Shown here: positions 27,001 through 30,000 of the stretch, one piece after another
Layout: every line of letters starts with the position of its first letter
How positions within the stretch are numbered: the stretch's first letter is position 1
IMG/VR virus record: IMGVR_UViG_2721755725_000006
DNA from: a virus
Taxonomy: Duplodnaviria; Heunggongvirae; Uroviricota; Caudoviricetes
Length of the DNA: 50,823 nt
Direction: 5' to 3' (one strand)
Made by a program: the position numbers

Positions 27001-30000
27001 CGCTATTAAGGCCGGACTGGCGGATGAATTAATCAATGCGTCGGATGCCATCAGCGTGATGGCTGCGGCGCTGAACACTCATGATACAGGAGGCACTATG
27101 CCGCAATTAACTGCAACGGAAGCTGCCGCGCAGGAGAACCAGCGAGTGATGGGGATCCTGACGTGTCAGGAAGCGAAAGGACGTGAACAGCTTGCCACGA
27201 TGCTGGCAGGACAACAGGGCATGAGCATTGAACAGGCCCGGGCTATTCTGGCCGCGGCGGCACCGCAGCAGCCGGTGGCATCCGCGCAGAGTGAAGCCGA
27301 TCGCATTATGGCGTGTGAAGAAGCGAAAGGTCGTGAACAACTGGCGGCAACGCTGGCGGCGATGCCGGAGATGACGGTGGAAAAAGCCCGCCCGATCCTG
27401 GCTGCCTCACCGCAGGCGAATGCCGGGCCCTCACTTCGTGATCAGATCATGGCCCTGGATGAGGCAAAAGGGGCAGAAGCGCAGGCTGAAAAACTGGCGG
27501 CCTGCCCGGGAATGACCGTGGAGAACGCCCGGGCTGTGCTGGCTGCGGGATCAGGTAAGGCCGAACCGGTCTCTGCATCCACAACCGCCCTGTTTGAACA
27601 TTTCATGGCGAATCATTCACCGGCAGCGGTGCGGGGTGGCGTGTCACAGACGTCAGCAGACGGTGATGCGGACGTGAAAATGCTCATGGCCATGCCATGA
27701 AGTCAGTGCTGACCATCAATATGAGGTTTTAACAAAATGGTGACGAAAACCATCACTGAACAGCGTGCGGAAGTACGTATTTTTGCTGGTAATGATCCGG
27801 CTCATACCGCCACAGGCAGCAGCGGGATTTCTTCTGCAACACCGGCTCTGACGCCCTGATGCTGGATGAAGCCACCGGGAAACTGGTGGTCTGGGATGGA
27901 CAGAAAGCCGGTAGTGCGGTTGGCATACTGGTACTGCCGCTTGAAGGCACAGAGACGGTGCTGACCTATTACAAGTCGGGGACCTTTGCGACGGAGGCAA
28001 TCCGCTGGCCTGACAGTGTGGATGAACACAAAAAGGCAAATGCCTTTGCCGGCACAGCCCTGAGTCACGCGGCTCTGCCGTAACACGTTATCAGGCCACC
28101 ATGGTGGCCTGACTGATTTCTGAATGAAAGGAACTGATTTATGGGATTGTTTACGACCCGCCAGTTACTCGGTTATACCGAACAAAAAGTGAAATTTCGT
28201 GCGCTGTTTCTGGAGCTGTTTTTCCGCCGTACGGTGAATTTCCACACCGAAGAGGTGATGCTGGACAAAATTACCGGAAAAACGCCGGTGGCGGCCTATG
28301 TCTCCCCGATCGTTGAAGGAAAAGTGCTGCGCCATCGTGGTGGTGAAACCCGCGTGTTGCGTCCGGGCTACGTCAAGCCGAAACACGAATTTAATTACCA
28401 GCAGGCGGTTGAGCGCCTTCCTGGTGAAGATCCGGCTCAGCTGAACGACCCGGCCTACCGTCGTCTGCGTATCATTACCGATAACCTCAAACAGGAAGAG
28501 CACGCCATTGTCCAGGTGGAAGAAATGCAGGCGGTGAATGCCGTGCTGTATGGCAAATACACCATGGAAGGGGATCAGTTTGATACTGTCGAGGTGGATT
28601 TCGGGCGCTCTGAAGGAAATAACATTGAGCAGGCTGACGGTAAAAAATGGTCTGAGCAGGACCGTGATACGTTTGATCCGACGCATGATATTGACCTCTA
28701 CTGCGATCAGGCCAGCGGCCTTGTGAATATCGCCATTATGGACGGTACGGTCTGGCGTCTGCTGAATGGCTTTAAGCTGTTCCGCGAAAAACTGGATACC
28801 CGTCGCGGCTCAAATTCACAACTCGAAACGGCAGTGAAAGATCTGGGCGCAGTGGTGTCCTTCAAGGGGTATTACGGCGATCTGGCCATTGTGGTGGCGA
28901 AAACGTCTTATGTGGCAGAGGACGGTACCGAAAAACGTTATCTGCCGGAGGGCATGCTGGTGCTGGGGAATACGGCGGCAGAGGGGATTCGTTGCTATGG
29001 TGCCATTAAGGATGCACAGGCGTTGTCTGAAGGAGTGGTGGCTTCTTCCCGTTACCCGAAACACTGGCTGACCGTGGGCGATCCGTCCTGTGAATTCACC
29101 ATGACGCAGTCCGCTCCGCTGATGGTGCTGCCGGATCCGGATGAGTTTGTGGTGGTACAGGTGAAATAATCCGTGAGCGGGGGCGAAATGCCCCCGTGTC
29201 TTTTTTCACAGGAGGCTGAGATGGCAACAAAAGAAGAAAATCTGAATCGTCTTCGTCAACTGGCTGGCCTGCTGGGGCGCGAGGCGGATATGTCGGGGAG
29301 TGCTGCGGATATTGCTCAACGTGTGTCTGAGTGGGAAGAGGAGCTTGCTGTTTCCCCGGAGGGCATTATGCACTCTGATGAGAGCGGGGCTGATCAAAAT
29401 CACACAGACGATGGTGAGCAGTTGAACAACACGGATGCTCCGGATGATGTTAAAGCCGTCCGGGTACGGAAGTGCCTGCAAGTAATGGGGTATTGCCCGG
29501 AGACAGGTCGTCCCGTTGAGCTGGCGTTACGGGGTATGCGTGTTCTGGTGCCATCATCACTGGCAACGGCCATGATACAGCACGGAACGGCTGAATATGC
29601 GTGATTTTCAGAATGCCTTTGATGCTGCCCTCGCCGGGGTAGACAGTACGATCGTTGAAGTGATGGGGCTCTGTGCGCAGTTCACCTCGGGGGCACAGTG
29701 TGGCAGCGAAGTTCAGGGGGTTTTTGACGATCCGGAGTCGCTGGGGTTTGCCGGTGGCGGGGTCCGTATTGAAGGAAGCAGCCCGTCATTATTTGTGCGG
29801 ACGGATACGGTTCGTGCCGTGCGGCGTGGTGACACGCTGACCATTAATGGTGAGATATTCTGGGTGGATCGTGTTTCTCCGGATGACGGGGGCAGCTGTT
29901 ATCTCTGGCTCAACCGTGGTCAACCACCCGCAGTTAACCGGCGACGATAAACGCAGGGTGAAATTATGGCGATAAAAGGGCTTGATCAGGCGATTGACAA

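Follow-up and report, generated by a model that had tools for sequence, protein, structure and literature searches.

Prophage organization and the split decoration gene

The window, by which we mean the whole 50,823-nt stretch of DNA that was analyzed, is an effector-carrying lambdoid prophage of EHEC-type Escherichia coli with head genes of the phage 21 type (Table 1). Across the head region, its DNA is 95-96% identical to that of phage 21 and of related free phages, each of which is annotated with one decoration gene. The type III effector genes nleL and espN lie at the right end of the window, and the nearest relative also has espK in its flanking region. Two insertion sequences, an IS66-family element and IS1203, sit within the late-regulatory and lysis region. 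The first tRNA of the three-gene cluster next to the IS66-family element was called as Met by ARAGORN, compared to tRNA-Ile in the RefSeq annotation of relatives.

Table 1 Features of the window discussed in the text, ordered by position
Feature	Coordinates	Strand	Remarks
Three-tRNA cluster	10607-10858		Met (CAT), Arg (TCG), Arg (TCT); ARAGORN
IS66-family element	11064-13480	-	ISEc47-like, three ORFs; adjoins the tRNA cluster
Esterase gene	14478-16415		
IS1203	17566-18779	+	Separates the holin and lysozyme genes of the lysis cassette; beside a truncated gene
GGG run	18811-18813	+	GGGG in relatives; just downstream of the IS1203 transposase gene
S49 protease/scaffold gene	26195-27700	+	Lambda C/Nu3 position; directly upstream of the decoration gene
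shp/D-type head decoration gene as assembled	27737-28083	+	347 nt, 348 nt in relatives
N-terminal fragment ORF	27737-27859	+	Opens at ATG 27737; 40 codons plus TGA (27857-27859)
CCC run, site of the missing base	27854-27856	+	CCCC in every close relative
C-terminal fragment ORF	27859-28083	+	74 codons; ATG overlaps TGA (TGATG)
8-bp hairpin	27871-27890		Stem CCACCGGG/CTGGTGGT
Major capsid protein gene	28141-29169	+	Lambda E position; Phage_cap_E (PF03864); directly downstream of the decoration gene
G GGA AAG heptamer	32031-32037		Tail assembly chaperone G/GT; upstream of the gpG stop (32085-32087)
nleL	43737-46084		Type III effector E3 ligase
nleL G run	45804-45809	+	G6, shortened by one; G7 in SD134209 and CP014092.2

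The head decoration gene occupies the slot expected of D or shp, between the S49 peptidase gene and the Phage_cap_E gene, and in its assembled form it is an HDPD-family pseudogene. In place of the single uninterrupted ORF of ~110-115 codons that characterizes the family, the window has two ORFs of 40 and 74 codons. Translation of the first gives MVTKTITEQRAEVRIFAGNDPAHTATGSSGISSATPALTP and translation of the second, which is read in the frame one base back, gives MLDEATGKLVVWDG...AFAGTALSHAALP. A preliminary description of this DNA had placed the end of the first ORF and the start of the second at exactly these positions, and had proposed that a single C was missing from ACGCCC(C)TGATG. Both points were borne out: adding one C to the run yields a single 115-aa protein that matches the phage 21 decoration protein SHP from end to end, and the same locus in relatives is annotated as an intact 348-nt gene for a 'head decoration protein' (WP_000256823.1). 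As would be expected of a homopolymer undercall, the indel lies within a run, and the longer run both restores the ORF and agrees with the relatives.

Family assignment of the repaired protein

Against the Pfam family HDPD (PF02924; curated cut-off, 29.1 bits), the repaired 115-aa protein scored 88.2 bits (E = 5.7e-25) over profile positions 1-114 of 116, and the 74-aa piece by itself scored 64.2 bits over positions 39-114, whereas the 40-aa piece by itself gave no score against Pfam. By profile, the repaired protein and the 74-aa fragment both belong to the HDPD, or gpD-SHP, family.

The preliminary description had likened both halves to lambda D and suggested aligning a corrected translation to gpD homologs as a check. 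Aligned to phage 21 SHP (PDB 1TD3, 1TD4 and 1TD0), the repaired protein runs from residue 1-115 to residue 1-115 of 1TD3 with 110 of the 115 positions identical; five substitutions (A34P, V75A, R90H, D93E and T107S in SHP numbering) separate the two, and the junction across the lesion, TPALTP followed by LMLDEATG, is the same in both. The window DNA is 95.4% identical to the shp region of phage 21, where the gene fills the same slot between the protease/scaffold and major capsid genes, but the gene of the window is one base short and reads as ORFs of 40 and 74 aa. Lambda gpD (PDB 1C5E and 1VD0; capsid-bound, 7VII) belongs to the same family and is encoded at the same genome position, with 53 of 94 residues identical (~56%) over the core (gpD residues 17-110) and its N-terminal 16 residues unaligned. 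The likeness to lambda D therefore holds for the family but not for the nearest relative, which is phage 21 SHP (96% compared to 56% for lambda D). Judged by sequence, shp-like is a more exact label for the gene than lambda D-like, and 'lambda D' serves as a family name.

Comparison with the nearest genomes

Strain SD134209 matches the window over its whole 50.8 kb: bases 1-1851 are identical, and the other 49.2 kb contain only four differences. Three of these are shortened runs in the window, namely GGGG to GGG at 18811-18813, CCCC to CCC in the decoration gene and G7 to G6 at 45804-45809 in nleL. The fourth is a synonymous T-to-C substitution at 33020 in the tape measure gene, where the C is common to the window and CP014092.2. 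The latter genome (GCA_001563715.2), identified through an exact match to the tail-tip protein J, aligned to positions 27719-50823 of the window (23.1 kb) with no mismatches and two gaps. One gap is the C of the decoration gene (C4 there) and the other is the G of nleL (G7 there), and in CP014092.2 both the 115-aa decoration gene and the 782-aa nleL are intact. CP014092.2 is itself the second version of its record, and the window may represent the first, now superseded, version. In the large collection that we searched, just two contigs encoded an exact match to the esterase of the window, indicating that the lineage is narrow.

The more distant E2863 sides with SD134209 at 18813, 27856 and 33020, and G7 is the RefSeq majority state at 45809; all derived states are thus in the window. 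At the decoration-gene site, SD134209, E2863 and CP014092.2 all have CCCC, as do all O111-type relatives, so the lesion is not one that related strains have inherited. The pattern of same-direction indels with few substitutions (two versus none against CP014092.2; three versus one against SD134209) is that expected of homopolymer undercalls. In the related prophage of E2863, RefSeq labels the tape measure gene (L001 24860-27471, NZ_AP018802.1) 'frameshifted'. Over 8.2 kb, CP027344.1 (L025) has a sole difference from the window, at 43150, where the window reads G2T8 against G3T7; this position is the boundary of two homopolymers in the tail-fiber gene, and SD134209 is the same as the window there.

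Companion G runs

The two companion indels also fall within or close to genes. In nleL, G6 splits the gene into ORFs of 718 and 95 aa. This run was G7 in 466 of 481 RefSeq records and G6 in 12, the latter scattered over O26, O103, O145 and O157 (RM9873-C1 has G6 and RM9872 has G7), and the G6 allele was also present on many Logan contigs and, in the large collection, in 55 index blocks. G6 in nleL may therefore be a true slippage polymorphism or hot spot, or else a recurrent error. Because it is so widespread, we rejected the idea that the three indels are equally strong evidence of error.

SD134209 has an open 140-aa ORF that is disrupted in the window by the GGG run beside IS1203. A 63-mer at this site was covered to at least 80% by 55 RefSeq records, and every match listed among them had GGGG (98.4%); the 106-aa ORF specific to the GGG state was not on record in an exact-protein look-up. 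On the plus strand between 1651 and 50823, which is mostly coding, runs of exactly four G are ~4-fold more common than runs of exactly four C (158 versus 37).

Occurrence of the CCC allele in public collections

A 501-nt query over the gene matched 1,873 RefSeq complete E. coli records, the best at 99.8% over 502 bases, which corresponds to one extra base. With a 63-nt query centered on the site, none of 919 RefSeq complete E. coli records (1,208 places) matched at 100%, and the best had a one-base gap; with a query for the divergent O157-type allele (taken from L017), CCC was found in none of 718 RefSeq records. CCC was accordingly absent from all 1,637 matching RefSeq complete E. coli records (919 + 718), and the possibility that homologs are naturally split here, which the preliminary description had named as a way in which its reading could fail, did not hold. 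An exact CCC 40-mer had no matches in IMG/VR. In the large collection, 5,542 index blocks contained the exact protein of the adjoining protease gene, and an intact 115-aa ORF followed it in all ten of the places listed.

In the same collection, the exact 40-aa fragment was found on 43 contigs and the 74-aa fragment on 15, compared to at least 1,000 contigs for the intact 115-aa protein. Some of the fragment matches are contig-edge truncations (L007, L008 and L011). True CCC alleles were seen on four or more allele backgrounds, whose identity to the window is 94-99.8%, and in one assembly (GCA_974496735.1) CCC is present in two different prophages (L015 and L016). Most CCC-carrying assemblies are error-rich: further homopolymer indels in them number from 9 to more than 50 in each 14-20 kb, and their terminase, portal, capsid and tail genes are likewise in pieces. 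A set of ENA assemblies numbered GCA_9744xxxxx (L014, L015, L016, L017 and L018) has the CCC call in O157-type prophages, and in three of these (L015, L016 and L018) the terminase is split in the same way (488 + 157 aa); the set has the look of a systematic, context-specific consensus error across one project.

CCC is thus a repeated call in error-prone assemblies of unrelated origin and is missing from those that were quality-filtered, with two exceptions that look clean: in L004 (GCA_001306715.1) and L005 (an ENA metagenome contig), CCC is the sole indel over 5.4 and 6.1 kb, respectively. In L006 and L012 the same gene is broken elsewhere, by a T5-to-T4 change at the equivalent of 27776-27780, and CCCC is kept. 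The Dcm methylation motif (CCWGG) was considered as a cause of miscalling and dropped, as it is absent from the decoration-gene site.

Discussion

A gene in two overlapping frames could be functional, with either a -1 frameshift at CCC_UGA giving full-length SHP or termination-reinitiation at UGAUG giving a two-piece protein. The stop and start do overlap (TGATG), and a stable hairpin lies downstream, where an 84-nt fold has a z-score of -3.45 compared to shuffled sequences. However, the hairpin begins 14 nt past the run, compared to the 5-9 nt sought as spacing for a stimulatory structure, and it is ordinary coding sequence that is unchanged in all in-frame homologs. The site reads G ACG CCC TGA and contains no X XXY YYZ slippery heptamer, whereas the positive controls in the window do have slippery sites (GGGAAAG in G/GT and an A run in IS1203). 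A -1 slip would need tRNA-Pro to re-pair on GCC, and after a +1 slip on CCC_UGA only three codons would be read before the TGA at 27867-27869. As for reinitiation, no Shine-Dalgarno motif precedes the ATG at 27859, and the 74-aa piece is without the first 41 residues of the protein; in lambda gpD, the N-terminal part contacts the capsid. The two-frame layout is conserved in none of the 1,637 RefSeq records, and the ten places listed beside an identical protease all have a single ORF. Since there is neither a slippery site nor a conserved two-frame arrangement, programmed frameshifting or other recoding is excluded, and we give it practically no weight.

What is left is the choice that the preliminary description had framed, between a genuine inactivating mutation and a homopolymer error, and here the weight falls on error. 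On the sequence comparisons above, the split is most likely not biological and would represent a homopolymer undercall in the source assembly. In that assembly, CCCC would have been called as CCC within a shp/D-type gene that is otherwise undamaged, in a prophage resembling phage 21 and lambda, and no fewer than two further G/C runs of the window would likewise have lost a base, the G4 beside IS1203 and the G7 in nleL; we infer that base-calling or polishing, rather than mutation, was the cause. EHEC genomes contain multiple copies of lambdoid prophages and of IS elements, and repeats of this kind are poorly handled by short-read polishing. Three homopolymer deletions against at most one substitution are the signature of long-read consensus error, although this argument from three errors is weakened by the presence of nleL G6 in the 12 RefSeq genomes and many contigs. 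Recurrence of CCC in error-rich assemblies points to a context-dependent base-calling error, and together with the companion shortenings and the lack of substitutions against CP014092.2 it favors sequencing error. Deletion errors in long-read assemblies are concentrated at 4-5-nt homopolymers (PMC12007338). The present case resembles these errors in the loss of one base from a 4-nt run, the breaking of a conserved ORF, the same-direction companion shortenings and the fact that the same context is hit in other assemblies. It differs in density, which is low in the window (3 per 50.8 kb) and polished-looking compared to the raw long-read assemblies L013, L019 and L020.

Homopolymers are real slippage hot spots too, and a very recent, strain-private one-base deletion at CCCC that inactivated shp in the course of ordinary prophage decay is an unlikely but serious alternative. 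The prophage already carries its IS66-family and IS1203 insertions, and its head genes may be under relaxed selection. L004 and L005 share CCC in sequence that is otherwise free of indels, so the deletion may occur for real somewhere, and the different 1-nt deletion in L006 and L012 affects a T5 run of the same gene. Under a genuine deletion, the head would go without stabilization by its own decoration protein and near-identical co-resident SHP genes could complement in trans; in the close relative SD134209, two or more shp-type genes are present besides the prophage's own. Frameshifted structural genes are also annotated in related prophages, including the tape measure gene of E2863. With the defective, effector-carrying lambdoid prophages of EHEC, the window shares nleL, espN and espK cargo, IS insertions and the occasional frameshifted structural gene, but here the nearest genomes keep all head and tail genes intact, and the shp break of the window is seen in no relative. 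This lesion is private to the window; CCCC is what the two nearest genomes have, at a distance of 0 and 1 substitutions, and the lesion is absent from every one of the RefSeq complete-genome records matched. Natural divergence would also not be expected to leave two or three homopolymer deletions and no substitution in 23-50 kb; in repair-proficient E. coli, substitutions normally far outnumber indels. We consider it very improbable that the C4 run of shp-type genes is a recurrent slippage hot spot that repeatedly disables head stabilization in E. coli prophages. If it were, L004, L005, L006, L012 and the window would be real cases of recurrent loss of the same head gene.

Neither an artifact nor a genuine deletion is novel, and the finding is ordinary either way; its consequence is mainly one of annotation. 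Taken at face value, the window describes a prophage that is unable to build stable heads and an E3-ligase effector, NleL, that is truncated, and both statements are probably wrong for the organism. A real deletion would add a further lesion to a prophage already damaged by IS elements, and near-identical shp genes in sibling prophages, such as those of SD134209, could complement it.
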